Source: a virus
Taxonomy: Duplodnaviria; Caudoviricetes
Virus record (IMG/VR): IMGVR_UViG_3300005805_000099
Span: 1 to 59,185 of that record
Reading direction: 5' to 3' (one strand)
Length of the DNA: 59,185 nucleotides
The position numbers were made by a program, and so were the translations under genes. Position 1 is the first letter of the stretch; every line of letters begins with the position of its first letter. Below are positions 40,901-56,338 of this stretch, piece by piece. The notes beneath the pieces are model-generated. The model was not told the DNA's origin, did no database searches, and saw only the letters and a program-made list of their open reading frames with translations.

Positions 40901-41146
40901 TTCTGGGATATTACAAAAGACCGTGGAGAGTTTACGGGTGTAACCGGTCCAGCTATGTTTAACTTTGAACCTAATGGGTACATCTATAATGTCAACCCAG
41001 CTTATGTAGACTATAATAAGCCGGTGCTGCAACGTAAGAAATTTAGACATCATGTAGGAAGAGTGTTCATGAAGAAATCAATTAGTGGTGACCTGAAGTT
41101 CTTGTTGAAGATCTCTAATCAAAAAGTTCAAACATCATACAGATAA
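34982..41146 (+). CDS. Tail stabilisation / muzzle protein (P22 gp10-like) with inserted lectin-like and Cys-rich domains
   Basis: NTFNKGLFKD N-terminus, LYWDDGLNPTR, YMRDEVYAF, HHKMPD, TISYDPKIKAWLSFHDWHP; synteny. Confidence 0.75.
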   Translation: MAENESSVGGAAGAVTNTFNKGLFKDYNDTFVGDGMWTHARNGVNNNDEGQVGVIGNEPANLFCVDLPYTMIGYIHMDKDQWAIYTTDDTNSEIGIFDESDCTYTKVINDPCLNFKRTNLITGAYRKRFDCRRQLYWDDGLNPTRILNIDDIPYICTPVTQTVTIDFYNYLIERRAAPIPCGQGFGVNGGNQGNFTYTVGLSEEMGVVTLNFNAYDVPDRCQVIFDGVTVIDTGFRGQSSFNSALAAAGYPPVTGPGSGVWTFNKFTTTSTCTVIVTAPLSGTVWNASLSCPVRNGNTPPQPPAPSTPPRVYYNDINNAQQFVELNFGQSTTVCADPASIVETNPGEYIITRQTACGSGTFIVTPPGDCGTFNCGPLDCEALRIAPLVKQPCLRLEKGRVGGTLANGIYQVAIAYLIDGIKLTDYIGLTEAQPIWSHENTSGSLELIVEDIDRDFSEFDLVVLSNINNNTTAKRIGTYSTSQGTIYIDRIPSGDVGTVPIDQLSIRTEPIEKSDSMWPLNQYLTRVGTYSKYKFNYQIQANQIVTRWVAVEYPADYYKKGGNNTGYMRDEVYAFFIRWIYNTGYKSESYHIPGRAADAIDTTLDWSDDAYEATTTGAIMPAWKVRNTGRVESTATSTLRDGGRVIATGKMAYWQSTELYPSDRNDVWGDLCGTPIRHHKMPDETVEPFTNALNTYTQNGTYISLLGVQFSNITHPLDANGNPDPSIVGFEILRGSREGNKSIIAKGLFNNMREYTVPGNSSVKGLFQNYPYNDLNPDPFLTPQVQDGDNGQANPSSTLMGGVLKNTFSFHGPDTTFVNPYLSINEIKIYGNAYGKSQGTFELPYKHPKFRQLTDVVKIVTDILGLIDKIGIIGNILNSGGSSGKKTVFTGTETFPAQFDFAGPSEFPKWRGGGDTFGLIASTAAFAAEVLIWASQALAYGYFELEMANARKQKILDIFKALVPFRNYATQYMSHGFYNLFLPAGSGERRREITDWTYVKPSIQTFNANYTINNLYRSQYIAVGIGLDLQNPANPDNSRVTVRQSGVGVGTGTKVIRNISSHYGALKIPIPSQYGQLDSIKQMLITPCVTYTVPDLNQTFQSDVLFQGDIYINRFTEKNTFVFFNTWLLGEPDDVEFDYTKYINIPYPRYWLNTGPADNAGLLGGLGKVSSDFRSFDDKDSSLFFVKQGWFYLFNSGVRDFFVESEINVACRDWEDPVPRRFYDPGEYEDLMSMFRSDIITSGNFYKYDFSMSLSKLYTSHITWGNILPREYDPQVASTCYTYRPNQLIYSLPSDTLSSTSARADGWRMFLPFNFRDFPSKITSIKSINLTGALFMMRERSPFKFSGTETLNLQAGGTAVTIGTGTLFGSSVNPTALQSVMNTEASFEYGSNQGRWAAISTTHGLFYVSQDQGKVFQFQGGGLDEISRNGMKWWLAKYLPSQLLKRYPNYPHYDNPVIGVGTLIMYDNTHELVYITKRDYVPLKDFEMDEDGNFYTSGGTTQVVSCPQGYTLVNDQCEKDIADCCPAGFTFVDGECQQLQTVPPIPVGTTIQLTRTPFHGYGYTTRLYNTPVVGSSYTTLDGSNPFWNINFAAPQNQAAQLNNGPVNRLAIWGLQLDGSGNPFNNYNLPGTSDIPPVGQWTGFTTCITVTNTQTYHIAIAGDNRYRISIDGVIILQSDDSSLENFQALHIYPVELTAGTHTITLEGYNNQEKACFGTEIYDLNNLPGAQTPIDYLNAQTDYSSLEARVVFTTRNQTQFTSGDFTCPAGYTASTTGSCNIPGCSRVVAVQPVNCTVPPTITNIEIKDYCELTDSDCFKDASFTISYDPKIKAWLSFHDWHPTFMLPGKNHFLSIPGDSTWKHNERCDLYTNYYGVNYPFEVEFVSSTGQQVNSLRSIEYILETYKFHQDCRAKFHVLDQNFDQAIVYNSEQISGLLFLDEKSKTNPLTMLSYPQINPNFIRINFSKEENKYRFNQFWDITKDRGEFTGVTGPAMFNFEPNGYIYNVNPAYVDYNKPVLQRKKFRHHVGRVFMKKSISGDLKFLLKISNQKVQTSYR

Positions 41147-41147
41147 T

Positions 41148-44100
41148 ATGAGAAAAGATTCTATACTCCAGCAGTACTATTATACCAAGCTTCCTAAAAA
41201 GAAAAACGGTGGTCCTGAGGACCCGTATCACCCTATTACTAATCCTACTGGATATAAGTTATCTTTATCTGATATTGAAGCTATAGCTAAAAGAAAAGAG
41301 GAAGAAGCCCTTGCTGCACAAAGAGGTCCTCAGGTTGGGTCATACAATAAAGCATATGATGTACAGAGAAAGAGAGCAGCTCAAGAATATAGTAAAAATA
41401 AAGCCCAAAGAAATAGTGCTTTAGTTAAAACACTAGGTTCTTTTACACCTAGTGGAAACAACCAAGATGCTGGATTAACTGGAGCTGAATTATTTGTTAA
41501 TGCTAATCCGTTAGTTACTGGTCCTATAATGTCTACATCAAGACTGTATGCAGCTGGTAGAAGCATGTTTGATCCAAAAACACAAAATCCTTATTTTGAT
41601 AATAGCAATAGTGTAGTAGAAAATATACTTGGTGGAATTGGTTTATTAGGAGATATTGCCATGTTAAGAACTTCTTTAAGAAGCCCTAAGTATGTTCCTA
41701 ATACTCCATCTAGTTTAAAACCTACACCTACTTTAAGACCTAGTGGTGTAGATTTAGCACCTTATGTTGATTTATCTGATATAATAAATAAAAGAGGATT
41801 AGTTACCCCTGGTTATAGAAGTTCATTAGATGTAGGACCTTATTGGAATAATAGAAAATTTAGAAATCAATCATTAAGATTTCTACAGAAAGAATCTGCT
41901 GATGAAGCATCTGCTGCTAGACTTAAACTTATTAAAGATGCTGAAAAATTTAAAAGAAATGTAATAGATGTTGATGATGTAAGTCAGTCTCCAAGTATTT
42001 TATATCGTAATGTAGATCAGCTAGTTAAAGAAGCTAATATAAGAAATGCTTTTTCTAGTAAAACTTCCCGTGCTGATACAGGAAGTCCTATGGCAGATGC
42101 TATCATAGGATTTTTTAAAAATAATTTTGCATTAACTGATACAGAAGCAGCCGATTTATTACATGGATATAATCCAACAAATCCTTTTACTAATTGGAGT
42201 GATGCAAGAATAAACAGTGCTTTAGAAATTTTAAAAAGACAAAGGCTAGCTTCTGGATTAATGAGTCCAACTTCAGATCCAATGATAAATGTAGGGGCTA
42301 GCAAACTTCCTCGTTTTGGTTTTTATTCTTCTGCCGAAAAAGATCCTTTAAAAAGTTTATCACAGGAGGTTTCTAGAAATTTAAAAAATAGTGACAATGC
42401 TTTAATATTTAGAGAAGAGCCTTGGTGGGGAGATGATTGGAAACTACTAGCAGGTGAAATGCGATCTAGTATAAAGAAAAGAGGATTAGATCCAAATAAA
42501 AAAGATGATGTTTTAAAATTTGCAAAAGAATTTGAAAAGGAACAAATTGAAAGAAGTTTAAAAAATTACTCTGGTCAACCAGAAGTTGATAAGTTATTTG
42601 AGGGACTTAATCCAAATAAATATGGTGGATTAGTAAAAGCTCAAGATGGTCTAGAGTTTATGAAAGGTTGGGTTAGTCATCGTGGATTTAGTCAAAGATT
42701 AAAAACGATGGGTAGAACTAATCCAGAAGTTGAACAAGCTAATATGCTTAATCTTCTTTCTCAGTATAAAGATAAAAATTATAAAGATTTACTTAAAGAA
42801 CAAGGACTTGGTGAATGGCTTAGACAACATAGTTCAGACGGTGTATCTTATAGTTCTTATGTAAATGGTAAATTTGGAGCTCATCCTTCTAGAGTTTATG
42901 TAAGAGGAAACAAAAAAGATACAGAAAGTAATAGAGCTCATGAGTTAACTCATATGTTAGAAAATAATGGAGAATGGCTTACACCAGAGGACCAAAATAA
43001 ATTAACTGCTCCATTGGGAAAACCTAGTTTTCTTAAAAATATATTTAATAGTGGTAAGTCAGGACGTAAATATTATGGTGATCCAACTGAAATTCACGCA
43101 AGAATGAATCAAGCAAGAATGGAACTGGGTCTTACACCAGATGATAAGTTTACTCCTGAGATGTTTGATCAAATAAATAAAAAGAAAAAATGGTATGGAC
43201 TTAAACCATTTATAAAAGATAAACAATCTTTTATAAATCTTATGAACACATTTGCTGCAAATGATCAATTTACTTCTATAGACACAGCAAAATATGGTAG
43301 TATTATAGAAGATGATATGGGTCAATTGAAATACCCAGGTCTTCCTACTAGGATTAAATCACCTAGTATTACTATGCAGGGTGTACCCTATCCTGTAGAA
43401 GCACAAGCTAATACTGGTCAAAAAGTTATAATGCAACCTGGTCAAGACTATTACTTTCCAGGTGCTGAGTATGTAGATGAGTATCCTATGATAAAAAGAT
43501 ATCAGCCTGGAGGGCCTGTATTTAAAATAGAAGAAGAGGATACTAGTCCTTTTTTAAAAAGTTTTCAAGGTAAAAGTATACCATCGGTTACTGAAGATTA
43601 TTCAGCTATGAGTGATTTTTATAATGATCTTTACGCTGCAGGTAATAAATATACTAATAAGAATACGGGGTTAGTTAGTCCTTTTAATGCAGCTAGAGCT
43701 GTATTAAAAGCTACTATTAAAAATCCAGAGGTTATGTTTATGAAAAGATATCCTCTTAAAAATCCTCAGTCTAATCCATACGGTGTAGAAAGTTATACAA
43801 CAGAAGAATTTTCTGGAAAATTACATCCTTGGATGCCAACGGACTGGGCTAAACCTCGTAGAGAAAAACCAGCTAGATTTAATAGTAATAAAGAAAATAG
43901 AAGATTAGATCGTCAGATTAGGAAAGGAATTAAAAATCAAGGTGATTGCTGGGGGGCTAATTGTTACGAAGAAGAGATGCCAAATGTAGAGTACGGTGGG
44001 TCTATGATGCAGAGAGGAGGAACTCCTATATATGTTTCAGATGCAAATGATCCTAGGTATAAATCTTATTCAGACAGTCTATACAGTTATAATGTTGGTC

Positions 44101-47100
44101 AAAGATTAAATAATATACTTAGTGCAGATAAAAATTATGTAAGTGTAAGAGGTGGTTCTCCTTTAGATAGAAAGATACAAGAAGCAGCCAGAAGAACTAA
44201 TAGAGGATTAGTTGATAATACAGAAGGAGTGTCTAATAAGAAGGTTAAGGAAGTAATGAAAGAATACCAGCAAAAAGCTAATAAAGGTATTCTACCAGTT
44301 AGATATCAAGGATATATCCCAAATCCTGATAACTCTGTTACTGATTTAATGACAGGCAGGAGTTTCTTAGAAATGGTTGGTTTAACAGAACCAAGGGCTG
44401 CTGGTAATTGGTATTTGCCTCAATGGGAGAAACCACAGGTACAAGTAGTAGTTGATCCGAATAGAGCTCCTAAACCAAAGCCTTCTGTACGAGAAGAAAG
44501 ACATTTAATGACTCCAGAAGATTGGAAAGATGTTAATTCAAATGATTATGGGGAGGAAGAAAGAAAAATTAAAAATGCTGACCCAACCAAGTATGATATA
44601 TATAGACTACCTGGAAACAAATTTGAACTTGTTTTAAAAAAGAAACCTGCTAAAAAGCCAGTGGTAGTTACCAAGAAAACTACACCTGAACCAGTAAGAC
44701 AAGAACCTAAACCAGTTAATGTTTTACAAGTAACTCAACCTCCTGTAATGAACTATAATCAGGGCACACCTGTTTATGCTCCTACACCTTATGGTGGTAA
44801 TAGTGGGGCAGGAGCTTTTGTAGGGTTTAAAGATAAGTCAGGTAAGATAACATATGTTCAACCAGAAGATTATGAACGAATGGGTGTACCAGGCTATGGT
44901 AGGGAATATATAAAGTCTCAAACTAAACAAATGTATGGTGGTCATATAATGATGAATGGAGGACCTACTAAATCACATGTAAATACAGTTAATCGTAATT
45001 ATTCTAGCAATAAGACTGGCAATAGCTACCAAGACTATACCACTATTATAGATGAGTATCCTGGTAAAGGGAATGATACTTCTTACATATTTAATCAACA
45101 GACTCCAAGAGGTAATGAACAGTTCTTCTACTCTACAAACTTTGGTAAGCCTATGGTTAGTCTTAGAAGGAACGGTCAGTTTGTTACTCCTATTTCAGAG
45201 CAAACCGCAGACTATAGAAATATAGTACTAGGTGGAGCCGGTGGTTTTAGAAAGTATGGAGGAGCTATGATGCAAATTGGTGGAAACATTGATTTAACAT
45301 CTTATGGTTCTAGAGCTTTAGTTAATCAGAATGGAGGAAATATAGATTTAAATCCGTATGGATCTAGAGCTATTGTAAATAGAAATGGGGGAGATATATC
45401 TCTACCTAATGTATATCCTGGACCTTTTGTTTCTAAGTATAATTACGGAGGAACTCCAATAGAACAAACATGGGATGTTATTGATAAGAAGTACGGTGGA
45501 TTAATTAAAGCTCAGAATGGTATACAAACTTCAGGGCTAGCTTATCCGGCTTCTTCTTATATAGAAGATCCATATGCTAATTATGATTGGGAAGGAAGAA
45601 TGAATAAGAATGTAGCAGCGGCTACAGACTTCTGGAAAAACTGGTATGCTAAGAGAGCTACCCTTCCTCAGTTTAAAGATGTATCCGAAAGAAGATTAAA
45701 GCTTTTAGAAGAACCTATTAATATTGAATACCTACCTTCTTCTGAAATGCTTAAAGAAGGAATGGCTGGTAGATATGCAATCTTTGGTAAAAACAAGGGG
45801 ACTTTTAATTTTGTTAATCCTACAGAAAAGTTTCATCCTATTTCTCATGACCTTTCAGACTTTACATCTATAAGATCTCAAAGTACTAGCCTTCCTGTAA
45901 TTAGTCATGAGCTTTTTCATAAGTTACATTATGAAGCTCCTCAGGGAGAACGTAACTCTTACGTAGGTGGTTCGGATTTTTCCTCATGGAATATTCCTAA
46001 AAGTAAAAGATTTATTTCACCCAGAAAATCCAAAATGGATAGGGATGAATATTCTTATATGGCAGGTTATTCTTCAATACTTGGGAATAATTCTCGTCAA
46101 CCTAGCATACTTAAACCAAAATATCCAGCTCAAGAGAAAACCGTTTTTAATCCAGAGATGGAAACTAGCTTGTCTCATCTAAGGATATCTGAGAACTTAG
46201 ATCCTACAAAGACCTACACTGCTGAGGATGTCCAACCTTTAATTGACAAGTATAGAAATCTTGATGAAGAATACTATCTAAAAAAACTTGATACTTTAGG
46301 ACCTGCTGAAATTCAAGATGAAGAAGGAGCTGTTAATGCTAGACGTATTAATAGTATGTTTAAGATGCTTGGTAATGATCCTAAAAAGATTGCCAAGTTT
46401 ATGAACTCAGTGGCTGCTGTTGACCCCAAGCAAAGTAACCAAGCTAGGTATGGAGGGTTAACTAAAGCTCAAAAAGGTCTTAATATTCCTGGAGTAACAG
46501 ATTATAAACCTCAAAGAGCAGTAAGTGATAATACTAGAATAGTTCAACCGATTGATAATAGAAATGCAGGAGCCGTACAATCAGCCGATCAGTTTACGAG
46601 AGACTGGATGAACTCTCCAATGTATAATCAAATGCTACAAGCCAGTATAAAGGCTTCTCCTAAGGTGGATCCTCTTACAAAACTTCCAACAGCTGATATT
46701 CCAGCTTTAAGAGAAGTAGCTGCAAATCCTGAAAACAGAAGAGTAGAGTTTAAAGATCTTAATAATCCTTCTCTTGGTGGTACAACATCATTTGGACTTA
46801 ATAGAAAAGGAGATCCTAAAAATATTCTTAATGTTATTCGTTTAAATATAAACAGTGAAATTCCTATTGAACAATCAGCTGGTCATGAAATATCTGGTCA
46901 TCAAACAACTTTAGGAGGTAACTTGATACCTTATGCAGATGTACAAAAAATTAATAAATACTTTACTCCACGTAATAGTATTAAGATATTTGACCCAATA
47001 GCACGATGGGCTAAGCAAGGAAATATATCTTATGATGCTGCTAAGAAACAAATACAAGATCTTCGTAAAGATCCAAGCTTTAATAAAGAATGGACTGAAC

Positions 47101-48299
47101 TTGAGAACATAAGAGAAACTACTAATAGTGCTATAGAAAGTAGAGATCATTATATATCAGATCCTGATGAAACTAGATCACGATTGATGTCTGTACGTAA
47201 GACTGCTAAACAGAATAATGTATATAATCCATTCACTCAAAAAATGACAAAAGATAATTTAAGAAAACTTAAAGGTCTTAATAATGATGAGTTGAATTCA
47301 TTATATGAAAACTATACTGAAGATGAGATATTAGATATGTTCAATAGTATATCTAAGACTGACCAACCAGGAGCAAACCAAACTATGGCTAGGTATGGTG
47401 GATTATTTAAGGCTCAAGATGGGGGAGATAGTTCTGCTGAGCAAGAGTGGTTGAATCAACAGTTTGTAGATAATCTTACATCTGACCCTGCTTACTACCA
47501 ATGGCCTGGTAGAATACAAGATCCTAAGAGAAGAGATCAACAAGTTAGAGATTTGTTCTTTAGTCAGATAGATCAAACTAAAGACCCCTACTTAGCAGAG
47601 AGAGCATTAAAAGCTGCTAATCAAGGCTATGGATCTGATAGGACACCTAATCAAAAGCTTAAGAACTATTATGGGTTTGACTATGCTGACATAGACCAAG
47701 ACAAGCTTTACAAATGGTTTGATGAATATAAGCAAGAGGCTGAGCCTTTTATGGGTAAAAGATATGGAGGGGCTATGATGCAGAAAGGTGGAGGATTTGA
47801 TGAAGAAGCTTTTCAAAAGTTTCGTCAAACATTACCCTTGAATTTAAGAATGGAATCTCCTGATTATAATTTAAGAGGATACTGGGAAGCTCTTGGAAAA
47901 CCATTGGAGTTTGATTACTCTCAGCCAAAAGAAGAAGATGGGTATTATCATGCTTTTAGTAGAAATCCACAAACTGGAGAAATACTAAAGAGACCTCAGC
48001 ATCCAACTTTTAAAATGGCTATTGAGGAAGATAGGAAGTTTGGTGCTTTTCCTATAGTGACACCAGATGGAAAAATTAAAACTGTAAGTGGTAGGGATTA
48101 CAAAGCTTATGGTGGTCCATTAGTAGAATACTATAAAGGGAAGATGACCGGTCCTAATATCTTTAAGGATGGTGGTCAACAGAAGAATAAGTATTTCTAC
48201 AATAAAGGATATGGTGTACCACATTTCCAAAAGGGTGGTTCTAAGCAAACAGATCTTCAGCAATATTACCTTGGAAAGATTAGAACAACTAGATGGTAA
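41148..48299 (+). CDS. Giant modular virion cargo (polyvalent) protein with three zincin metallopeptidase modules
   Basis: 2383 aa; HELTH, HELFH and HEISGH motifs; modules delimited by YGG/KAQxG/MMQxGG linkers; follows the muzzle gene like crAss cargo proteins. Confidence 0.7.
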   Translation: MRKDSILQQYYYTKLPKKKNGGPEDPYHPITNPTGYKLSLSDIEAIAKRKEEEALAAQRGPQVGSYNKAYDVQRKRAAQEYSKNKAQRNSALVKTLGSFTPSGNNQDAGLTGAELFVNANPLVTGPIMSTSRLYAAGRSMFDPKTQNPYFDNSNSVVENILGGIGLLGDIAMLRTSLRSPKYVPNTPSSLKPTPTLRPSGVDLAPYVDLSDIINKRGLVTPGYRSSLDVGPYWNNRKFRNQSLRFLQKESADEASAARLKLIKDAEKFKRNVIDVDDVSQSPSILYRNVDQLVKEANIRNAFSSKTSRADTGSPMADAIIGFFKNNFALTDTEAADLLHGYNPTNPFTNWSDARINSALEILKRQRLASGLMSPTSDPMINVGASKLPRFGFYSSAEKDPLKSLSQEVSRNLKNSDNALIFREEPWWGDDWKLLAGEMRSSIKKRGLDPNKKDDVLKFAKEFEKEQIERSLKNYSGQPEVDKLFEGLNPNKYGGLVKAQDGLEFMKGWVSHRGFSQRLKTMGRTNPEVEQANMLNLLSQYKDKNYKDLLKEQGLGEWLRQHSSDGVSYSSYVNGKFGAHPSRVYVRGNKKDTESNRAHELTHMLENNGEWLTPEDQNKLTAPLGKPSFLKNIFNSGKSGRKYYGDPTEIHARMNQARMELGLTPDDKFTPEMFDQINKKKKWYGLKPFIKDKQSFINLMNTFAANDQFTSIDTAKYGSIIEDDMGQLKYPGLPTRIKSPSITMQGVPYPVEAQANTGQKVIMQPGQDYYFPGAEYVDEYPMIKRYQPGGPVFKIEEEDTSPFLKSFQGKSIPSVTEDYSAMSDFYNDLYAAGNKYTNKNTGLVSPFNAARAVLKATIKNPEVMFMKRYPLKNPQSNPYGVESYTTEEFSGKLHPWMPTDWAKPRREKPARFNSNKENRRLDRQIRKGIKNQGDCWGANCYEEEMPNVEYGGSMMQRGGTPIYVSDANDPRYKSYSDSLYSYNVGQRLNNILSADKNYVSVRGGSPLDRKIQEAARRTNRGLVDNTEGVSNKKVKEVMKEYQQKANKGILPVRYQGYIPNPDNSVTDLMTGRSFLEMVGLTEPRAAGNWYLPQWEKPQVQVVVDPNRAPKPKPSVREERHLMTPEDWKDVNSNDYGEEERKIKNADPTKYDIYRLPGNKFELVLKKKPAKKPVVVTKKTTPEPVRQEPKPVNVLQVTQPPVMNYNQGTPVYAPTPYGGNSGAGAFVGFKDKSGKITYVQPEDYERMGVPGYGREYIKSQTKQMYGGHIMMNGGPTKSHVNTVNRNYSSNKTGNSYQDYTTIIDEYPGKGNDTSYIFNQQTPRGNEQFFYSTNFGKPMVSLRRNGQFVTPISEQTADYRNIVLGGAGGFRKYGGAMMQIGGNIDLTSYGSRALVNQNGGNIDLNPYGSRAIVNRNGGDISLPNVYPGPFVSKYNYGGTPIEQTWDVIDKKYGGLIKAQNGIQTSGLAYPASSYIEDPYANYDWEGRMNKNVAAATDFWKNWYAKRATLPQFKDVSERRLKLLEEPINIEYLPSSEMLKEGMAGRYAIFGKNKGTFNFVNPTEKFHPISHDLSDFTSIRSQSTSLPVISHELFHKLHYEAPQGERNSYVGGSDFSSWNIPKSKRFISPRKSKMDRDEYSYMAGYSSILGNNSRQPSILKPKYPAQEKTVFNPEMETSLSHLRISENLDPTKTYTAEDVQPLIDKYRNLDEEYYLKKLDTLGPAEIQDEEGAVNARRINSMFKMLGNDPKKIAKFMNSVAAVDPKQSNQARYGGLTKAQKGLNIPGVTDYKPQRAVSDNTRIVQPIDNRNAGAVQSADQFTRDWMNSPMYNQMLQASIKASPKVDPLTKLPTADIPALREVAANPENRRVEFKDLNNPSLGGTTSFGLNRKGDPKNILNVIRLNINSEIPIEQSAGHEISGHQTTLGGNLIPYADVQKINKYFTPRNSIKIFDPIARWAKQGNISYDAAKKQIQDLRKDPSFNKEWTELENIRETTNSAIESRDHYISDPDETRSRLMSVRKTAKQNNVYNPFTQKMTKDNLRKLKGLNNDELNSLYENYTEDEILDMFNSISKTDQPGANQTMARYGGLFKAQDGGDSSAEQEWLNQQFVDNLTSDPAYYQWPGRIQDPKRRDQQVRDLFFSQIDQTKDPYLAERALKAANQGYGSDRTPNQKLKNYYGFDYADIDQDKLYKWFDEYKQEAEPFMGKRYGGAMMQKGGGFDEEAFQKFRQTLPLNLRMESPDYNLRGYWEALGKPLEFDYSQPKEEDGYYHAFSRNPQTGEILKRPQHPTFKMAIEEDRKFGAFPIVTPDGKIKTVSGRDYKAYGGPLVEYYKGKMTGPNIFKDGGQQKNKYFYNKGYGVPHFQKGGSKQTDLQQYYLGKIRTTRW
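45279..45392 (+). repeat. 54-nt tandem repeat encoding GGNIDLxxYGSRAxVNxN
   Basis: Two full copies plus the start of a third. Confidence 0.8.
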
Positions 48300-48313
48300 A
48301 CCTTTAAAGTTTA
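48297..48313. promoter_or_regulatory. Palindromic box
   Basis: TAAACCTTTAAAGTTTA, overlapping the upstream stop codon. Confidence 0.55.
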
Positions 48314-48361
48314 AACATTAAATACTTTGCCGTTTAACTAAAAAAGATTAAATTGTAATAT

Positions 48362-51300
48362 ATGGCTTTGTATCCTAAATATTCTAGGCTTCCTAAATAT
48401 CAAAAAGCCGGTAGTGTTAATGTAGACAAACGTGTACAGATGGCTGCTGAAGCAAGAGGCCCTGAATGCCGAGCTTTTGGTAGAGAAGAAGCCATGGGTG
48501 GTTATGGAGCAGTTAATCCATACTATGATATACCGGAACCTATTCCAGAATGGACATCTATGGTTGATGTTACTGGACTTAGAGGATATCCTGAGGGCGG
48601 TAAGAAGAAAGAACTAGAAGCTTTTAACAGCTCAGTGGATGCCCAGTACAAGCAGGCTAAGAGCATGTACCCTGATTTAACTCTTCCCCAGTTTGTAGCT
48701 GCTAGAAGAGATGCCGAAAGGTATTCTAATTTGAACTGGAGCAATGATATAAAAGCAGCCTTTGAACCAAGGACTGGTGCTTTGGTTAAAGGAAAAGATC
48801 CTAGAAACTACTCACCATATCAAAGATTTTATCAAAGTAAATTTCCTGGTAGATATTCTATTACTCCTAATGATGTATTAGGAGTTTGGAGTGGAATGCC
48901 GGGAAGGTTTAGTGATTATGAGAAGTGGGCCAATATAGGATATACCCAACCCACTGAAAAGAAAGAGGGTGGTGGTATCCCAGAAAGGTATAAGAACATG
49001 GGATTTAGTAGTACTGGTCAAAAGAAACAATCTAGTAGACCAGGTAAGAAGTGGATGGTGCTTGCTAAGAAAGGAGATGACTACAAGGTAGTACACGGTG
49101 GATACAAAGGAATGCAAGACTTTAGCCAACACGGTAGTCAACAACGTAAAGAAAACTTTTGGAATAGGATGGGTGGTAAAGACTCCGCTAAAGCTACCGA
49201 TCCTTTTAGTCCTTTATACTGGCATAAAAGATTTGGTACATGGCAGGACGGTGGAGCTGCCCCTATGAATAATTCAATAAACTCTGATATGATGCAACAA
49301 CCTACCCAAGAGCAGCAAATGATAATGTCTCAGATTATACAGGCATTACAATCTGGTGTACCTGCTGAAAAAATTCTTTCTGACTTGGTTCAGAATGGTA
49401 TTCCTGAAGAAATTGCTTTACAGTATATGGAAGCTGTAAACAGTATGATGGAACAGCAAGGTGGTCAAGAAGCTGCTCAACCTGAGCCAATGATGGCTAG
49501 AGGTGGAAACTATTCTGGAACCTATTACCAAGGTAGCTATTTTAATAGTGGTGGTAGTAAGCTAGGATCATACATGTATGACCCTTATGCTACATTTATG
49601 ACTGGTGGATTTATGCCTAAGGCTGCACTAGGAATGGGAGTTAATCAACCATACATGGGAGAAGGACTAGATCCTTTGGCTTACCCTGACTATCCATCTT
49701 ATGTAGAAGCTGATATGGATTACCAGAATGCTATGGATGATTCAGAGCCTTATAATAATCCTGTATTATCTGCTGCATCTGATATGGGATATCTTGACCC
49801 AGCATTTGATGTATTAACTGGTGAAGGTGATCAACAAAATCCTGATAGTAGCATGGCTAGAAGAAGACTTAAGGCTTACACTCAAACTTACTTACGTCTG
49901 CCGGCAGATGATGCTACACTAGCAGCATTGGCTACTAAGCTTGGTATATCTAATTATACAGGTACTCCTGAACAAGACACCAAAATTCTTGATAGCTTGT
50001 TAAGAGCTGCCGGAACTCAGGGTGGGGTAGACCAATATATAAAAGAAGCTGGTTTGACACAAGCTCCTTTACGTGTTATACAAAGAGGAAGTACACCGAC
50101 AGGTCGGCCAGCTCCTCGTGTAGTTATACCAAGACCTGGTAGTAGAGGTGGTGGAGGATTTGCTACTCCTGATACTATATTTATTACTAGAGATAGTATT
50201 AAGGGTGGGGGCATAGACAGTACTGGAGGTGGTGGTAGAGATAGTACTAATACTGATACACCATGTGGAGTTGGGTACACTAAAGATTTTTATACTGGTG
50301 ACTGTGTTCCTATTGGTGATGGTAGTGGTAATAAGAGAAATACTGATGATAGTGGTAACTGGTTTAATATGCCAGAGTGGGTTGAGAACTTAGGTCTTGT
50401 TGCTGCTGGTGCATCAGCTCGTCCTCTTTATAGAAGAGCTGGTAAAACATTTGATAATGCTGTTGGTAGAGTTCTAGATAGAATGATGACTCAGAGATAT
50501 GGTTTTACTCCTGAGCAAGTGACAGCTATGAAGCAAAAAACTTCTGGTCAACCTGCAGCACAACCTGCTACACAGCCTAAAGCTGAACCTAAAGCTAAAC
50601 CACAAGCTGCTCCTAAACCGGAACCAGCTCCAGATACTAGAGTGAGACCTTCATTTATGGAACCGGCTAAAAGACCTGTTCCTGCAGGATTTACTCCAGC
50701 TGTTTCTGATAAAGCTATTGTTGAAGGTATCATGGGCATGGATGCTGATATGGCTGACAAGATTGCTGAAGCTAGAAGCATGGGATGGTCAGATAGTGAA
50801 ATACTTAAACAGGGTCAAGGAATGCAAGAAGCTGCTGTTAAGTGGAATGAGGCTAGAAAAGCTTCTATGAAAGCTGCTCAGCAACCAGCTGCTCCTCAAA
50901 AGAAAGCTGGAACTTCTAAACAAAAAGCTGCTCCTGCAAAACAACCGGCTAAACCCAGAGGAAATGCAGCCAACTTAAGACCAGCTGTTGGTGATGCTGC
51001 TATATTTGATAGAATTTATAACAACTTACCACAAGCTGATAAAGCTTATATTGATTGGGAACTTGGTCAAAGAACTGCTGGTAATAAGATGAGCACTGAC
51101 CAAGCTAAAAAATCTTTGCTAAAAGAAGGTGTGATGTATGATGCTGTTCAAAGAGGATTAGGTGTAGCACCTGTTGCTCCAACGGCTCCTACAGTAGAAC
51201 CTACAGTAGAAGCTCCTAGTAGAGGCATGTTTGAAAGAGGAAAAGGATTTATTAGAGGACTAGTAGGACTAGGAGAGAAAGGTAGAAAAGCTTATGGAGG

Positions 51301-52093
51301 TCCTGTAGATTATATGAACTATGGTGGTGGATATATTCCTGATTATGGCATGGCTTATGGTGGTGCTTGTTATCAGTGTGGTGGTGCTTATGAAGATGGT
51401 GGAGGGTATGATAACCCAGGATTTAGAGCATTACCTGACTATGTACAAGAGAAGATTATGAGAGCTTCTGGTAAAGCTATGTATGGTATGGGGATGGCTT
51501 ATGGTGGAGTACCTAGAGCACAAATAGGATTGCAAAAAAATCCAGATAGTACATTTGGAGAGTACACTGTTCCTGCTCCAGATATAAACCCTGATAGCAT
51601 GTATGGAGAATATACTATCCCTGCTCCATATATGGGTTCTTCACAACCTTATGATTATCAAAATGAATTTAGACAACTTTTGAATAACTATAAACAACCT
51701 TATGATTATCAAAATGAATTTAGATCATTGATGAATCAACAGCGGTTGATGGAATTGAATAAAACAAATCCTCAATATATGGTTGACCCACAAACAGGCC
51801 GAGTCATAATGAAACAAAAGAAAGGTGGTATCTATATAAACCCTGCTAACAAAGGTAAGTTTACAGCTAAAGCTAAAGCTGCCGGTATGGGTGTACAAGA
51901 GTATGCTCGTAAAGTGATGAGTGCCCCAGAAGGAAGATATCCAGCTGCTACTAGAAGACAAGCTAACTTTGCTAAGAATGCTGCAGGATGGAGACATCAA
52001 ATGGGTGGTATGGTAGGACAAGAAATGAATGTTACTCCAGATCAGCTTCAAATGCTAAGAGATGGTGGTTATGAATTTGAAATCCTACGCTAA
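48362..52093 (+). CDS. Modular virion cargo protein with many xxGG linkers
   Basis: 1243 aa; small basic modules, a DUF3597-like segment, P/A/Q-rich linkers and dense YGG repeats. Confidence 0.65.
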   Translation: MALYPKYSRLPKYQKAGSVNVDKRVQMAAEARGPECRAFGREEAMGGYGAVNPYYDIPEPIPEWTSMVDVTGLRGYPEGGKKKELEAFNSSVDAQYKQAKSMYPDLTLPQFVAARRDAERYSNLNWSNDIKAAFEPRTGALVKGKDPRNYSPYQRFYQSKFPGRYSITPNDVLGVWSGMPGRFSDYEKWANIGYTQPTEKKEGGGIPERYKNMGFSSTGQKKQSSRPGKKWMVLAKKGDDYKVVHGGYKGMQDFSQHGSQQRKENFWNRMGGKDSAKATDPFSPLYWHKRFGTWQDGGAAPMNNSINSDMMQQPTQEQQMIMSQIIQALQSGVPAEKILSDLVQNGIPEEIALQYMEAVNSMMEQQGGQEAAQPEPMMARGGNYSGTYYQGSYFNSGGSKLGSYMYDPYATFMTGGFMPKAALGMGVNQPYMGEGLDPLAYPDYPSYVEADMDYQNAMDDSEPYNNPVLSAASDMGYLDPAFDVLTGEGDQQNPDSSMARRRLKAYTQTYLRLPADDATLAALATKLGISNYTGTPEQDTKILDSLLRAAGTQGGVDQYIKEAGLTQAPLRVIQRGSTPTGRPAPRVVIPRPGSRGGGGFATPDTIFITRDSIKGGGIDSTGGGGRDSTNTDTPCGVGYTKDFYTGDCVPIGDGSGNKRNTDDSGNWFNMPEWVENLGLVAAGASARPLYRRAGKTFDNAVGRVLDRMMTQRYGFTPEQVTAMKQKTSGQPAAQPATQPKAEPKAKPQAAPKPEPAPDTRVRPSFMEPAKRPVPAGFTPAVSDKAIVEGIMGMDADMADKIAEARSMGWSDSEILKQGQGMQEAAVKWNEARKASMKAAQQPAAPQKKAGTSKQKAAPAKQPAKPRGNAANLRPAVGDAAIFDRIYNNLPQADKAYIDWELGQRTAGNKMSTDQAKKSLLKEGVMYDAVQRGLGVAPVAPTAPTVEPTVEAPSRGMFERGKGFIRGLVGLGEKGRKAYGGPVDYMNYGGGYIPDYGMAYGGACYQCGGAYEDGGGYDNPGFRALPDYVQEKIMRASGKAMYGMGMAYGGVPRAQIGLQKNPDSTFGEYTVPAPDINPDSMYGEYTIPAPYMGSSQPYDYQNEFRQLLNNYKQPYDYQNEFRSLMNQQRLMELNKTNPQYMVDPQTGRVIMKQKKGGIYINPANKGKFTAKAKAAGMGVQEYARKVMSAPEGRYPAATRRQANFAKNAAGWRHQMGGMVGQEMNVTPDQLQMLRDGGYEFEILR
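51643..51724 (+). repeat. 31-nt exact direct repeat (51-nt period) encoding QPYDYQNEFR
   Basis: ACAACCTTATGATTATCAAAATGAATTTAGA at 51643 and 51694; preceded by a duplicated NPDSxxGEYTxPAP. Confidence 0.85.
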
Positions 52094-52102
52094 CAACTAA
52101 TC

Positions 52103-55100
52103 ATGCCTAAGATAAGAATAACAGGTAGGAAACTACCAGCAGCTCAAGATGGTGCAGACGTAGAAGGTCCTTTCTTTTTAGGACCAGAAGGGAAGCCTCA
52201 AGTAAAGATGCTACCTAATGTTACTGTTAGAAGTGCTTCTGCAGTAAATGGAAAATACTTTGTACCAGGCTTTGGCTACGTCACTCCAGAAGACCTACAA
52301 GATATTAAGTATCGTGTAGAGATGAGTCCTGGATATAATCCTGATATTTCTTGGAGAGAGCAGACTGGATTAGCTTTTGAGAATTCTTTATTAGATAGAC
52401 TGGGTAGAGGAGCCAATATGGTGTTTAGTGATGAGATGGCTGGTGTCAAACCTCTACAGTGGGCTAGGAATATTATGTTTGCTCCCGGTGCTGGAGCTGT
52501 TAGTTTAGCCAGAAGTTTATCTGGAGAAGACATGGTCTCTACTAAAGAAGCCATGGGTAAAGCTGCTCCTTGGGATGTTAGTGGTTTAGGTATGATTCCT
52601 CATGCTGCTAAAGCAGCAGAAGAGTTTGTACAGAATCCTGGTGTTCTTACTGGTATTGGGGCTGTAGCTAATACAGTAGCTGCATTGCCTGTTGTTGGAT
52701 CTGTAGAGTCTAGTCCTCTTAAAATTTCTGCAGCTAATAGTGTTTCACGTGGAACAGCTATTCTGCCAGAGATTGGCAGTAAACGTTACTGGTTTCCTAG
52801 TGGTAAGGTGACGGCAACAGGGGTGCTTAAAACTCCATTGAGAGTGTTGCCATTTGGTCAAACTACTAAAGCTGCTGTAAAAGAATTTGTTGCTCCTATC
52901 CCTAAAGGGGTGTCTTCTGAAATGGTAGGTGCTGCCGTAAGAGGTAAAGCTGCTAATTTAATTGGTCAAGCAACCCATCCTACGTTTTCTTTAGTGGAGA
53001 ATGTAGCAGCGGCTCCTTATAGAACTATGACATCTGCTGTTAACCCAGCTCTTAGAAAAGCTGGAGTAGAAATAACAGAAGCGGCATCTGTTCCTGTTCT
53101 TGGTCCTGTGTCTCCTTTTGTAAGAGGAGAAATGATAGGTGAACAAGAAATAGGTAGAAGACCCACTTCATATTTAGAAGAAGGTGCTGATGCATTGGAT
53201 GCTTTATATATGCCTACACAAGAACCCCCTGCTCGTCAAATGAAAACCTCACCCGGAACTACATATTATAGAGAGCCTAGTGCTTCTGGAAACATTGATA
53301 GTCTAGAAGCTCTTAAGAGAGAACTAGAAGCTGCCGGTCTTACTGGACAGAAAGCTTACGGTGGTATGACAGGAACTAAAGAACTTCCTCATCTTTTTAG
53401 ATATAGAGCTGGTATCCCTCTTCGTTGGGCCCAAGTTGGAATAGAAACAGAAGAAGAGGATAAAACACCAATTAACTGTGAGGATATCAATAAAGATTTA
53501 ATGCAGGATCCAAATGATCCTAATCGTTGTATACCTAAACCAAATGCTAGTTTAGTAACAAAACCAATAAAGAAACCTTTATCTAATACTCCACCACAAG
53601 GTTATGCAAAGGATTATGGTACAATGAAGTTCACTCCAATAATTGATAACAGTCAGTTATCAAATGGTACTGGTGGAGTAAACGTGTGGGATTCAAATCT
53701 TGGAAACACAGATATTCAGGGTAAACTAATTAATGATGCTTCTATAGCTATGCCTAAACAAACTGTTGTTAATACCGATGGTACAACAACAACTACTGGG
53801 TCTGTAGATATAGGGCAGCCTACACTATATCAAACAGATCCTAATCAAACAAAAGAAGTAGGACTGTTCAAACCTGTTAAACAAAAGTCAAAAGGAAACT
53901 TTTGGGACAAGCTAGAGAAATTTAATAGAGGTGTAGATAACTTTATTAATCCGGTGTCTGCCGTTGCTAATTACATAGATAACTATAAGCAGCAGAAGAA
54001 ATGGAATAAACAATGGAGAGAGAATGCTTTTGATTTATCTACAGCTAGTAGTACATTTAAAGGAAACTTTGATCCTAATACCGGTTACTTTCAACCAGAC
54101 AAGTTAGGCTTTAAGAATACAATGTATGGTAGATACGGGGGTTCTTTAAACGATAATACTATGGATACAATTAGAATAAGATTACTGGGTGGTCCTGTAG
54201 AAGATCAACCTGATGAGATGGCTTATGGTGGACAGCTAGGATATGGACTTGATTTAGGTCAAAGAAATACTTATACGTCTATGCCTAAGACAAAATCAGA
54301 AGAGGTTAGTAATACTATTAAGGAAGTTCCTCGTAGTCAAGCTAATATAGAAGCTGAGAAAGGAGAAACGGTATATGCTGATATGGATGGGGATGGAATG
54401 GAAGAGCACTTTAATATTGGTGGTCAAAGACACACCAATGGAGGAACCCCTCTTAATGTACCAGACGGAAGCTTTGTGTTCTCTGATACAAAGAAGATGA
54501 CTATTAAAGATCCTAAAATTCTAGAGAAGTTTGGACTGACTGCTAGAAAAGAAGGGTATACACCTGCAGAGATTGCTAAGAGATATGATGTAAACAAGTA
54601 CAAAGCTATAGCTGAAGATCCTGTTCAGGATGGTATGTCTAGGAACACGGCTATAATAATGATTAAGAACTATCAAAGAAAGCTAGCTGAGCTTGCTATT
54701 ATCCAGGAAAGAATGAAAGGATTTCCTCAAGGTATTCCAGAGATGGCTATGAAAGTTCTTTCTCCAGAAATGCTACAAGAAATTCAGGCTGAGATTCAAG
54801 AGCTTAAGGCTAATGAAGAAGCTGACCAAGGAGCCCAGTATGATCTTAACGGAGCCCCTATAGATACAGAACAGTTTATGGAAGATCTTCCTGAGATGGA
54901 AGAAGAGCCAGAGATGGGAGAATACCCTGAAGAAATGGAGTATGCTTATGGTGGAGATTATGATTTAGATTCTTACCAGAAAGGTGGTGAGCAAGACTGG
55001 AGAAGGAAAAGACGTATTCTTGAAAAGATGAATGCTTTAGGTACAAGTCTTGGAGCACAAATTGGATATTCTAAAAGATATGAAGAAGGTGACTTCATGA

Positions 55101-56338
55101 TTCCTGAAAAACAGGCCGCTCAATCTTCCGGCTTGTATGGTGATATAAATGCTGCTGATGTACAAGACTTTAAGAAAAGACATAAGTGGTACTTTAGTAG
55201 TATAGCTGACCCAGATAAATGGAATCCTGCTACAAAAGCTGATGTTGAAGATTTTCAAGCAGCTTATAATCAATATGCTAAGCAACTAGGATTTGATCAA
55301 GACTATTTTGTTAAAGACAGTGGTGAATTTGATGACCTTGATGGTTTGTTTGGTGAGTTTACATATAACACACCTTCACTAGATTTAGTTCCTACTACAC
55401 CAACAACTCCTGGGTCAGTCATAGGATGGCTTTGTAGTAATAATCAAGTGGTATCTAAGCAATATGCTTCAGAAGCTGAGAGGGATGCTGCTGGTGCTAA
55501 AGCTGATATGAAGGACCCTTCATTTGCTAATTGTAAAATCACACCTGGAAAGTCAGTTATTGAAGAAAAGCCAAAGACCCCCGTTCCGTTTAAATACATG
55601 ACTCCTGACATTTGGAAGATGTCTCAAGTGAGGGGTAGGAGGATTAATAAATATCTGCCTTTTATAGCAGATGTTCCTTATGAGCCTAATCAATTTACTC
55701 CAGAAGAGTGGAGGGCTAAAGCTGCTGAGCTTCAGTCTCAAACAGGAGATATGGCTAGGACACTTGGAGCTTATGGATCTACTAGTGCCTTAGGAGCTGG
55801 GCTTAGTGCTTTAGCTGGAGCTCAAGGTAGGAATCTAGTTTCAGCTATAGCTGATACAGATGCTAGGAATGTAGCTGGATGGAATGCTTTTACAGGAAGA
55901 GAGCAGGCTAGGAAGGATCAGTTTAATGCTCTTAGGGCAGCTAACCAAACTGAAAGGTGGAAGGGTAATGTAATAGCCAACCAACAATATGACAATGCTC
56001 TTAATAGACAAGCTGAAGATATTGTCAATGCTGACACCAATGCTTGGACTAATAGAATGGAGCTTGGTATGATGAATGAAACAAATAAATTCTACTACGT
56101 AGATCCACGTACAGGCAGAATGGTATGGAAAGGTGGTTATGGTCCACAAGACTTAGGTCAATCTACAGCTTCTGTGAACTACGATAACATGGCTCAAGAT
56201 TGGCAAAAAGCTCAGACTGCACTACCTGGTATAACTTATGACCAGTGGTTAAAAATGAGAGGTGCAAAATATGGTGGATCAACAAATAAACGTACCTTAG
56301 GTGAAATGTTGTTTCATGGGTACGGCTTCCCCTTTTAA
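52103..56338 (+). CDS. Virion cargo/ejection protein
   Basis: 1411 aa; ANIEAEKGE...GGQRHTNGGTPL...FVFSD domain; helical C-terminal region; YGG linkers. Confidence 0.6.
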   Translation: MPKIRITGRKLPAAQDGADVEGPFFLGPEGKPQVKMLPNVTVRSASAVNGKYFVPGFGYVTPEDLQDIKYRVEMSPGYNPDISWREQTGLAFENSLLDRLGRGANMVFSDEMAGVKPLQWARNIMFAPGAGAVSLARSLSGEDMVSTKEAMGKAAPWDVSGLGMIPHAAKAAEEFVQNPGVLTGIGAVANTVAALPVVGSVESSPLKISAANSVSRGTAILPEIGSKRYWFPSGKVTATGVLKTPLRVLPFGQTTKAAVKEFVAPIPKGVSSEMVGAAVRGKAANLIGQATHPTFSLVENVAAAPYRTMTSAVNPALRKAGVEITEAASVPVLGPVSPFVRGEMIGEQEIGRRPTSYLEEGADALDALYMPTQEPPARQMKTSPGTTYYREPSASGNIDSLEALKRELEAAGLTGQKAYGGMTGTKELPHLFRYRAGIPLRWAQVGIETEEEDKTPINCEDINKDLMQDPNDPNRCIPKPNASLVTKPIKKPLSNTPPQGYAKDYGTMKFTPIIDNSQLSNGTGGVNVWDSNLGNTDIQGKLINDASIAMPKQTVVNTDGTTTTTGSVDIGQPTLYQTDPNQTKEVGLFKPVKQKSKGNFWDKLEKFNRGVDNFINPVSAVANYIDNYKQQKKWNKQWRENAFDLSTASSTFKGNFDPNTGYFQPDKLGFKNTMYGRYGGSLNDNTMDTIRIRLLGGPVEDQPDEMAYGGQLGYGLDLGQRNTYTSMPKTKSEEVSNTIKEVPRSQANIEAEKGETVYADMDGDGMEEHFNIGGQRHTNGGTPLNVPDGSFVFSDTKKMTIKDPKILEKFGLTARKEGYTPAEIAKRYDVNKYKAIAEDPVQDGMSRNTAIIMIKNYQRKLAELAIIQERMKGFPQGIPEMAMKVLSPEMLQEIQAEIQELKANEEADQGAQYDLNGAPIDTEQFMEDLPEMEEEPEMGEYPEEMEYAYGGDYDLDSYQKGGEQDWRRKRRILEKMNALGTSLGAQIGYSKRYEEGDFMIPEKQAAQSSGLYGDINAADVQDFKKRHKWYFSSIADPDKWNPATKADVEDFQAAYNQYAKQLGFDQDYFVKDSGEFDDLDGLFGEFTYNTPSLDLVPTTPTTPGSVIGWLCSNNQVVSKQYASEAERDAAGAKADMKDPSFANCKITPGKSVIEEKPKTPVPFKYMTPDIWKMSQVRGRRINKYLPFIADVPYEPNQFTPEEWRAKAAELQSQTGDMARTLGAYGSTSALGAGLSALAGAQGRNLVSAIADTDARNVAGWNAFTGREQARKDQFNALRAANQTERWKGNVIANQQYDNALNRQAEDIVNADTNAWTNRMELGMMNETNKFYYVDPRTGRMVWKGGYGPQDLGQSTASVNYDNMAQDWQKAQTALPGITYDQWLKMRGAKYGGSTNKRTLGEMLFHGYGFPF

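Follow-up and report, generated by a model that had tools for sequence, protein, structure and literature searches.

The three giant open reading frames (ORFs) directly downstream of the muzzle gene in a 59,185-base stretch of viral DNA (IMG/VR record IMGVR_UViG_3300005805_000099, an incomplete genome; the whole stretch is called the window below) are punctuated by short recurring peptides. These peptides lie between unrelated protein modules and recur at the N- and C-termini of stand-alone relatives. We tentatively propose, with a confidence that stops somewhat short of even, that the three ORFs are polyvalent cargo proteins composed of tagged units and that the peptides (termed linkers within a chain and tags in general) act as docking or positioning signals and as hinges. 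The three ORFs, numbered by their order after the muzzle gene, are:

41148-48299, + strand: slot-1 ORF (P0001), putative cargo protein, 2383 amino acids (aa)
48362-52093, + strand: slot-2 ORF (P0002), putative cargo protein, 1243 aa
52103-56338, + strand: slot-3 ORF (P0003), putative cargo protein, 1411 aa

The initial annotation of this DNA had quoted eight bipartite linkers from P0001, and all of them were found in frame between 42618 and 47760 with the peptides as quoted. The tripeptide YGG occurs 11, 4 and 5 times in P0001, P0002 and P0003, respectively (20 in total), and is absent from the remaining 41 of the 44 window ORFs examined, including the muzzle ORF and the ORF at 56396, both of which had correctly been described as lacking the pattern. 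Shuffling of the three proteins gave mean YGG counts of 0.78, 0.95 and 0.44, with the observed number being reached in 0, 19 and 0 of 1000 shuffles. The bipartite pattern YGG.{1,3}[KM][AM][QM].G is present seven times in P0001 (0 of 1000 shuffles), and the dipeptide GG is enriched in P0001 (30 against 14.1 expected) as well as in P0002 (31 against 16.1), again with 0 of 1000 shuffles for each. Half-linkers, also described earlier, could be located at the N-termini (aa 14-22 in P0001, 9-17 in P0002 and 10-17 in P0003), and all three proteins carry [KR]LP..[QKN]..G within their first 22 residues. Linker codons vary synonymously, as had been claimed, with codon identity close to that predicted from the codon usage of the gene itself: 30 of 48 pairs are identical for the four KAQ linkers, compared with 22.9 expected, and 8 of 18 for the three MMQ linkers, compared with 8.4. 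Constraint therefore acts on the peptide. No internal repeats were detected in P0001, P0002 or P0003 by BLASTP at E≤0.01, and the linkers are thus not remnants of a tandem duplication of whole units.

P0001 is a mosaic of at least nine homology blocks that have different partners and are separated by linkers, which places it within the range of 2-15 distinct domains per polypeptide used to define polyvalent proteins. Pfam contained no family for P0001 as a whole or for ten excised P0001 modules; across these modules and the whole window cargo proteins, DUF5754 in P0002 was the sole match. The features of P0001, together with the ends of high-scoring segment pairs (HSPs) shared with relatives, are as follows (P0004 and higher numbers denote related proteins, L numbers related loci):

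41160..41213, + strand: N-terminal tag SILQQYYYTKLPKKKNGG; its type, ..SIL.N[YF]YY.KLPKAQ.G, is also found in P0004, P0006, P0007 and P0010 and in loci L012, L016 and L024
42618..42650, + strand: linker KYGGLVKAQDG; a block shared with P0005 begins at aa 497
42939..42953, + strand: HELTH (an HExxH motif) at aa 598, in the module spanning aa 497-717; HELTH is also present in the homologous P0005 module
43296..43514, + strand: small beta domain, aa 717-789, ending ..VDEYPMIKRYQPGG; 2138 cluster representatives at E≤0.001
43989..44021, + strand: linker EYGGSMMQRGG; blocks stop at aa 939 and begin at aa 960
44931..44963, + strand: linker MYGGHIMMNGG; a block shared with P0004 begins at aa 1260
45252..45284, + strand: linker KYGGAMMQIGG; a block shared with P0004 stops at aa 1374 and a GG-bounded insertion relative to P0004 comes next
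45489..45521, + strand: linker KYGGLIKAQNG; no homology boundary within 12 aa, the next block beginning at aa 1481
45906..45920, + strand: HELFH (HExxH) at aa 1587, in the module spanning aa 1472-1767, read from the sequence
46446..46478, + strand: linker RYGGLTKAQKG; blocks stop or begin at aa 1767-1787
46884..46901, + strand: HEISGH at aa 1913, in the third HE-motif module; six homologues read HE.SH there (alignment A4)
47391..47423, + strand: linker RYGGLFKAQDG; 16 HSPs stop at aa 2084-2099, and the linker is aligned with ..NGGWLQKFQDG of L001 (A4)
47760..47792, + strand: linker RYGGAMMQKGG; 10 HSPs begin at aa 2204-2222
48105..48140, + strand: linker AYGGPLVEYYKG; the motif recurs in P0006, P0007, P0008 and P0010
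48252..48296, + strand: C-terminal tag DLQQYYLGKIRTTRW, resembling the N-terminal ILQQYYY of P0001 itself

Relatives that share the N-terminus type of P0001 end in ..PLLQFYY.. or ..GGLLRDYY... The additional residue in HEISGH could render the metal site inactive or altered.

That the three ORFs are strings of unrelated modules, as the initial annotation had it, is borne out by relatives which hold the blocks separately and in other orders, with 50-80% identity between modules. Alignment with relatives likewise upheld its suggestion that linkers coincide with module boundaries and indel breakpoints, since homology starts and stops there and gene fusion and fission occur at the same places. Block ends in P0001 cluster at aa 497, 939/960, 1260-1268, 1374, 1767-1787, 2088 (16 HSPs) and 2216 (10 HSPs), and lie at most 12 aa from 7 of the 11 YGG sites, while an eighth site has a further cluster, at aa 2302, 19 aa away. 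Of 348 HSP ends in an early set of 18 proteins, 25.9% were found within 20 aa of a linker compared with 10.9% for random positions; none of 500 random trials reached the observed value. Among 373 dipeptides, GG was the most enriched (1.78-fold) at 8448 homology breakpoints from 548 proteins, and the top 25 tripeptides included the linker-derived QDG, YQG, KYQ and MMK. Neither test was tuned to the motif; BLAST alignments end on matched residues and thereby favor any conserved pair, and the ranking against all dipeptides serves as the control. P0001 relatives of mosaic structure were found among both similar-length candidates (8 of 5785) and shorter ones (7 of 7999).

Individual junctions illustrate this behavior. 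At the 45252 linker, P0004 runs on as ..YGG|DISVPP, whereas the window protein has an insertion before NGGDISLPNV, such that GG stands on both sides of the insertion between ..KYGG and DISLP... P0025 joins ..SSERINYQHRRKQDGG..MANKPNNP.. in a single chain, and six loci (L061, L066, L084, L087, L090 and L091) have two genes instead, with a stop and a start at the QDGG junction. The module after the linker at aa 2206 of P0001 forms the N-terminus of the stand-alone proteins P0014-P0016. In P0002, the homology blocks 192-298 and 1150-1242 start and stop at GG, and in P0003 block boundaries are located at aa 699-730 and 945. As a separate observation, positions 45285-45392 (aa 1380-1415) hold two tandem 18-residue copies of NIDL[TN][SP]YGSRA[LI]VN[QR]NGG (GGNIDL repeats) between two linkers, which are missing from the otherwise 80% identical P0004 block.

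To describe the vocabulary across the clade, we used a pool of 165 proteins plus 530 ORFs, each 200 aa or longer, taken from 81 related loci, yielding 695 sequences of which 626 are distinct (528,796 aa). In IMG/VR, 489 stretches matched the search pattern and 380 of them encode a relative; the best 80 were kept. One relative of P0001 and none of P0003 was found in IMG/VR, and comparison of both proteins with 50,697 phage records (megablast and tblastn) returned a single short match, to cr56_1. In the 626 distinct proteins, L.KAQ.G occurs 101 times compared with 0-1 after shuffling, with 33 copies in the first 30 aa, 0 at the C-terminus and 68 internal; GG is found at most 8 aa upstream of 45 of the 68 internal copies. 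The pattern WL[DNKSE][KNRQ][YFH] occurs 53 times against 1-3 shuffled (8 N-terminal, 18 C-terminal, 27 internal), and MMQ.GG, which in relatives usually forms the C-terminal boundary of the small beta domain, 34 times against 0 (0 N-terminal, 1 C-terminal, 33 internal). In alignment A4, ..GGWLQKFQDG of L001 and ..YGGLFKAQDG of the window occupy the same position, which makes the WL and KAQ forms a single motif. A longer closing tag, ..[LV]T.EE[IL]..[YFL]...G[GY].[VF]E.. (as in ..VTPEQL..L..GGY.FEI), was counted 88 times at C-termini and 107 times internally, compared with 1 in the shuffle. Of its internal copies, 41 are followed by L.[KQ][AYF]Q..G within about 30 residues, a typical composite junction being ..ELTDDEIEEYRKGGYIVEDISVPELNQAQKG.., and such a junction is thus a closing tag joined to an opening tag. 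A position matrix derived from N-terminal, LP-anchored tags gave 14 internal matches in 217 proteins compared with 0-2 in shuffles, but misses the P0001 linkers because they lack proline; it was dropped and the simpler L.KAQ.G pattern used instead.

The tags are specific to the cargo slots. A recognizable muzzle ORF followed by the three slots is found in 71 of the 81 related loci, and slot counts are based on these 71. Slot-1 ORFs carry the N-terminal tag in 5 of 61 cases, the C-terminal tag in 14 of 61 and YGG at 0.50 per 1000 aa; these are minimum figures because many slot-1 ORFs are cut by the locus ends. The respective values are 25/47, 28/47 and 2.66 for slot 2 and 21/39, 6/39 and 1.34 for slot 3, compared with 2/129, 0/129 and 0.26 for upstream control ORFs and a YGG density of 0.28 for muzzles. 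In the cultured cyanophage Lbo-JY46, the three cargo genes carry, in order, the small domain, the closing tag and MKIRIIGLPKAQIG.., while no linkers were present in Cellulophaga phi17:2, Flavobacterium FPSV-S29 and csAssE-Sib, which were also examined. The initial annotation had therefore recognized part of the vocabulary: its motifs stand, while further motifs and the occurrences in the cyanophage and in crAss001 (see below) had been missed. The literature searched for the motif strings, crAss-like polyvalent proteins, protease processing in Crassvirales and Lbo-JY46 holds no description of these peptides, and the vocabulary is undescribed to that extent.

The second and third slots are built in the same manner, and the end of P0002 connects the system to a cargo protein of known structure. 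Their features are:

48386-48412, + strand: slot-2 N-terminal tag RLPKYQKAG, read from the sequence
49028-49171, + strand: DUF5754 module, P0002 aa 223-270 (PF19058, E 2e-7)
51290-51508, + strand: AYGG cluster of the slot-2 protein, read from the sequence
51824..52090, + strand: slot-2 C-terminal unit, a KGKFTA..ANFAKNA module followed by GG and the C-terminal tag; hhalign match to crAss001 gp45
52031-52090, + strand: slot-2 C-terminal tag VTPDQLQMLRDGGYEFEILR, kept at the C-termini of relatives
52109-52153, + strand: slot-3 N-terminal tag KIRITGRKLPAAQDG, read from the sequence
52154-53365, + strand: slot-3 extra module of about 450 aa (aa 18-421) after the N-terminal tag, missing from slot-3 relatives
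56300-56335, + strand: slot-3 C-terminal peptide GEMLFHGYGFPF, read from the sequence

The extra module of P0003 ends in AYGG (53354) and is followed by a second tag-like peptide, LRWAQVG (53420-53440), as if it were a unit inserted with duplication of the tag. P0003 contains four more [ARK]YGG copies, and slot-3 ORFs of relatives can be aligned to its residues 524-1356, one example being L016_12573 with its residues 73-859. Copies of the DUF5754 module of P0002 with 72-79% identity were seen in P0025, P0043, P0104 and P0114, set between GG junctions.

The last 90 residues of P0002, aligned with seven relatives, match residues 373-474 of gp45, cargo protein 1 of crAss001 (PDB 7QOG, 7QOI, 7QOJ, 7QOL and 8CKB), with an hhalign probability of 92.6% and an E-value of 4.6e-7. 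The match is strongest at 373-426 and resumes at 447-474 after an insertion in gp45. Based on this profile match, homology of the KGKFTA module to gp45 373-426 can be regarded as firm. Residues 425-552 of gp45 form a domain bound to the portal wing and residues 214-245 are bound in the tail barrel, according to the available text of the structural study (Bayfield 2023, PMC10172136), which makes no mention of linkers, tags, a protease or a scaffold. The first ordered segment of gp45 is preceded, at a distance of four residues, by AYGG (207-210); the second has GGWLNTQGG (427-435) at its beginning and is followed eight residues later by another AYGG (560-563). The tag vocabulary therefore brackets the sole cargo segments seen in a crassvirus structure. 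Within gp45, GGWL occurs twice (0 of 2000 shuffles), as does [AF]YGG (a count reached by 3 of 2000). The gp45 gene (7988-10516 in L093, the crAss001 locus) directly follows the muzzle gene like the window ORFs; however, gp45 has only 842 aa and no L.K[AYF]Q..G, whereas the window proteins reach 2383 aa and 11 junctions. No similarity to gp45 or gp46 was found for P0001, and gp46 remained without a match. P0003 was also considered as a gp45 homologue and rejected, the probability for its C-terminal block being 0.02. As a side observation, slot-3 proteins begin with a basic [KR]I[KR]I..G.[KR][LM]P, to which the gp45 N-terminus MAKKKIKRRGKMPPNIFDTGG is similar, a likeness that may bear on the unassigned 14-residue density at the crAss001 muzzle.

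Based on these results, the three post-muzzle ORFs would be virion cargo (ejection) proteins of the polyvalent type, chains of unrelated modules whose boundaries each bear a short peptide with Gly-Gly at its flanks, such that [KRA]YGG closes one module and (W)L.K[AYF]Q.G(G) or MMQ.GG opens the next, with ..VTPEQL..L..GGY.FEI as a longer closing tag. Because the same peptides are found at the N- and C-termini of single-module relatives, the giant ORFs would represent end-to-end fusions of tagged cargo units. The tags may be recognition or positioning signals for the particle interior, directed to the portal, the tail conduit, or the capsid and scaffold, while their glycines would be hinges that let each module unfold and thread separately during ejection and the junctions would be permitted sites of fusion, fission and exchange. 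The initial annotation had offered a repeated loading or ejection tag as one of two options. This option is strengthened by the terminal position of the same peptides on stand-alone cargo and by the homology of one unit to the gp45 region that runs into the portal-bound domain, while binding of the tags, their partner and a part in ejection are what we infer from these patterns. Functional tags are the best-supported reading of their conservation at termini across deep divergence, their restriction to cargo slots and their relation to a portal-docked region.

The genomic setting is that of a crassvirus cargo block. All large ORFs of the window are on the + strand, and the surrounding genes are:

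Within the window, + strand: PhoH-like protein (Pfam)
Within the window, + strand: large terminase (PHROG)
Within the window, + strand: portal (PHROG)
10737-12005, + strand: acidic scaffold-like protein (from its sequence only)
Within the window, + strand: crassvirus-type major capsid protein (PF23898)
Within the window, + strand: collagen-like fibre (PHROG)
30864-32069, + strand: DNA repair exonuclease amid the structural gene block (phrog_704, E 1.4e-53)
Upstream of the ClpP-like gene, + strand: crassvirus ring 2 and ring 1 proteins (PF25702 and PF24228)
34296..34979, + strand: ClpP-like serine protease gene between the ring-1 and muzzle genes (PF00574)
34982..41146, + strand: muzzle-like tail protein, 2054 aa (phrog_37948, E 5.4e-72; YGG count 0)

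The order of ring 2, ring 1, muzzle and then three giant ORFs on one strand is that of crassvirus cargo, and the three ORFs occupy the position held by the cargo proteins gp45 and gp46 in crAss001. The muzzle ORF matches muzzle or structural proteins of Lbo-JY46, Cellulophaga phi17:2 and csAssE-Sib by tblastn. Portal identity is 33% to the Leptolyngbya phage Lbo-JY46 and about 25% to Cellulophaga phi17:2/phi4:1 and csAssE-Sib; these values mark the phage as an uncultured and distant member of the crAss-like viruses. Located between the portal and capsid genes, the 422-aa ORF at 10737-12005 is very acidic over its first 110 residues, looks helical and scaffold-like by eye and has no matching family in Pfam or PHROGs. 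A scaffold is its probable identity, and its candidacy as a protease was rejected on these features. The 762-aa ORF at 56396-58684 begins MATFIPNITD... and lacks tags as well as YGG, so tagging is not universal among the genes of the cargo block; relatives of this ORF starting with MATYL.. or MATFI.. come after slot 3 in L012, L016 and L024/L026. Among 185,579 species genomes, the small domain had only seven matches (L094-L100), all of them contigs of metagenome-assembled genomes (MAGs) and probably binned phage. Five are labeled Bacteroidota or Kapaibacterium, one Micavibrio and one Dojkabacteria, which gives a weak hint about hosts.

The small beta domain comprises 70 residues with the pattern ..DPMGQW..ITMQGV.YPV..PG.DY.FPGA.YVDEYP and usually occupies residues 21-91 in phage proteins that range from 86 to 3014 aa. 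AlphaFold2 modeling of an 83-residue query yielded predicted local distance difference test (pLDDT) values of 94-97 over residues 11-70 and below 50 for the GG-bearing flank, which is thus predicted to be disordered. A Foldseek search of the PDB with this model gave no match at E≤0.001, with weak cupin-like rows only, and its BFVD matches include a structural protein of Cellulophaga phi4:1; a phi4:1/phi17:2 protein with the same small N-terminal domain carries a structural-protein annotation. For P0001 aa 1760-2110, the third HE-motif module modeled with six homologues, the mean pLDDT was 48 and that of the linker flanks 25-37; half of the core is also low, making the model weakly compatible with disorder of the flanks. 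A complex prediction for P0001 residues 2065-2105 with the capsid protein, the scaffold-like protein (C-terminal half) and the ClpP-like protein scored 0.00 and is evidence neither way. The HE-motif modules had no match in Pfam, among PDB sequences or in a PDB profile search, the last of these run with the third module. For the third module, the Atlas entry LPD23 (PF18838), a domain family defined on polyvalent proteins, is a lead only and was not confirmed by Pfam.

An alternative explanation, which we consider improbable although worth serious attention, is that the giant ORFs are polyproteins whose junctions are cut before or after injection by the ClpP-like protein, the HExxH modules or a host protease, the N-terminal copies then being leader-removal sites as in T4. 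A precursor of separately tagged proteins would be expected to show just such junctions, with an N-terminal tag coming after a C-terminal one. Some modules occur both fused and split, and linker flanks are predicted to be disordered. A candidate enzyme also lies on the same strand between the ring and muzzle genes: the ClpP-like protein has a PF00574 match at E 5.6e-21, also matches several "head maturation protease" families of PHROGs and, judged by eye, seems to have Ser, His and Asp in place. The initial annotation had named ClpP among possible docking partners of the linkers, a link which its distribution does not support. PF00574 was found in none of eight related records, comprising the complete Lbo-JY46 and phi17:2 genomes, the L001 record and five others (three of them at least 98% complete), and relatives of the window protein were found in none of the 81 cargo loci; a tblastn search of 91 loci matched only the six fetched with ClpP itself. 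Its closest kin, at 58-64% identity, are found among non-structural genes on 44-371 kb viral contigs of large phages with no linker-rich ORFs nearby. Judged by this distribution, the ClpP-like gene is not a partner of the linker system. HExxH is enriched 46-fold in the family (0.37 vs 0.008 per 1000 aa), and autoprocessing by zincin-like peptidases has been proposed for polyvalent proteins in the available text of Iyer et al. 2017 (PMC5512222), but only 63 of 217 relatives contain the motif. Cleavage is possible but, as neither the ClpP-like gene nor HExxH is conserved, would have no conserved enzyme behind it. Further, a cut at extreme C-terminal copies (..GGWLDKYK*) would free only a few residues, and the virion gel bands of up to 270 and >300 kDa listed for crAss001 (PMC6235969) may represent uncut giant cargo. 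Overall, from the sequence evidence, cleavage at the linkers appears a weaker reading than tags.

Gly-Gly processing of the adenovirus type, which had also been suggested, is not supported. The phiKZ-like prohead protease processes inner-body and head proteins, and adenovirus and African swine fever virus (ASFV) proteases process at Gly-Gly, the likeness being a recurring short site in packaged proteins, with Gly-Gly in the case of the eukaryotic viruses. The adenovirus protease consensus is (M/L/I)XGG-X, with which MNGG (aa 1268-1271) is the sole P0001 junction to agree. A scan with Pfam and/or PHROGs that covered 32 of the 44 window ORFs yielded no protease of the phiKZ, adenovirus or ASFV type, the genome being incomplete.

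The linkers could also be passive hinges or recombination junctions with no reader, Gly-Gly spacers that tolerate fusions, indels and swaps or are favored by short DNA homology, with internal tags as recent scars; we hold this to be unlikely, if a degree less so than cleavage. The extensive mosaicism of 50-80% identical modules in different orders would be expected in this case, as would GG-bounded indels such as the insertion relative to P0004, the slight excess of codon identity at KAQ linkers and the probable disorder predicted around the linkers. However, MMQ linkers show no excess of codon identity, and 101 copies of the seven-residue pattern L.KAQ.G where chance gives 0-1 are too specific for a mere spacer. 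The position of the N-terminal copies is also conserved between phages with no more than 33% portal identity, and the tags are confined to cargo slots. Chance or low-complexity composition has practically no probability left: P0002 is rich in G, A, P and Q and not all three proteins are enriched in GG, but shuffles never reach the YGG counts of P0001 and P0003 or the bipartite motif, and the motifs recur in hundreds of relatives. The shuffle counts in the window proteins and in the 626 relatives refute this explanation.

Several points weigh against docking or positioning tags as well. GG is not enriched in P0003 (11 against 12.1 expected, with 693 of 1000 shuffles reaching 11), three of the eleven YGG sites of P0001 (aa 1215, 1433 and 1449) have no homology boundary nearby, and most slot-1 proteins use another N-terminus, the N-terminal tag pattern matching only 5 of 61. 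Relatives were collected via the small domain, ORF starts were set to the first ATG and related sequences are not independent, by which counts are inflated. Homology of the C-terminal tag itself to gp45, as distinct from that of the adjoining KGKFTA module, is tentative, and for this clade the partner and the binding of the tags rest on inference. The portal offers 12 sites, too few for every tag of a multi-module protein, and internal copies may therefore be idle. As modules are shuffled frequently, internal tags could also be young fusion scars that are not under selection.

Known systems offer partial parallels to tagged cargo. Cargo-loading peptides of encapsulins, carried on flexible Gly-rich linkers, direct cargo into the interior of an HK97-fold shell; the likeness lies in the short address peptide, there is no sequence relation, and binding of the window tags to the capsid protein would be an analogy. 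In T4, the capsid targeting peptide is removed by the prohead protease. The capsid targeting sequence is the one element common to the otherwise diverse internal proteins of T4, as stated in the available text of PMC3012670, and the window resembles T4 in that otherwise unrelated putative cargo proteins share a terminal peptide. The T4 peptide is N-terminal only and single-copy, whereas the tags described here are also internal and C-terminal and no conserved protease was found with them. Polyvalent proteins are similar in combining many unrelated domains, among them HExxH modules, in one phage polypeptide delivered with the DNA, but the words "linker" and "glycine" occur 0 times in the available text of Iyer et al. 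2017 (PMC5512222), where no common junction or terminal peptide is described. Relatives of the window cargo further carry peptidoglycan hydrolase domains (PF01832, PF01551 and PF00877).

In conclusion, crassviruses are among the most abundant phages known, and megadaltons of protein are loaded into and ejected from their particles, with the sole solved virion having left most of this cargo unresolved. The statistically clear tag vocabulary provides concrete peptides which label every cargo unit, occur in thousands of metagenomic proteins and bracket the ordered segments of crAss001 gp45, and it accounts for the assembly and reshuffling of very large effector proteins. In a more far-reaching version, which we regard as doubtful, the tags would form a portable address code in a large crAss-like clade that includes a cultured cyanophage and, in weaker form, crAss001. 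Every unit would carry an opening and a closing tag that dock to the portal, conduit or capsid, set the order and register of threading and define the sole sites of fusion, splitting and exchange. If this is true, any tag-flanked effector could be loaded and injected, making the system a natural plug-and-play payload system, and if tags suffice for loading, they would offer a means of placing proteins of choice inside phage particles.

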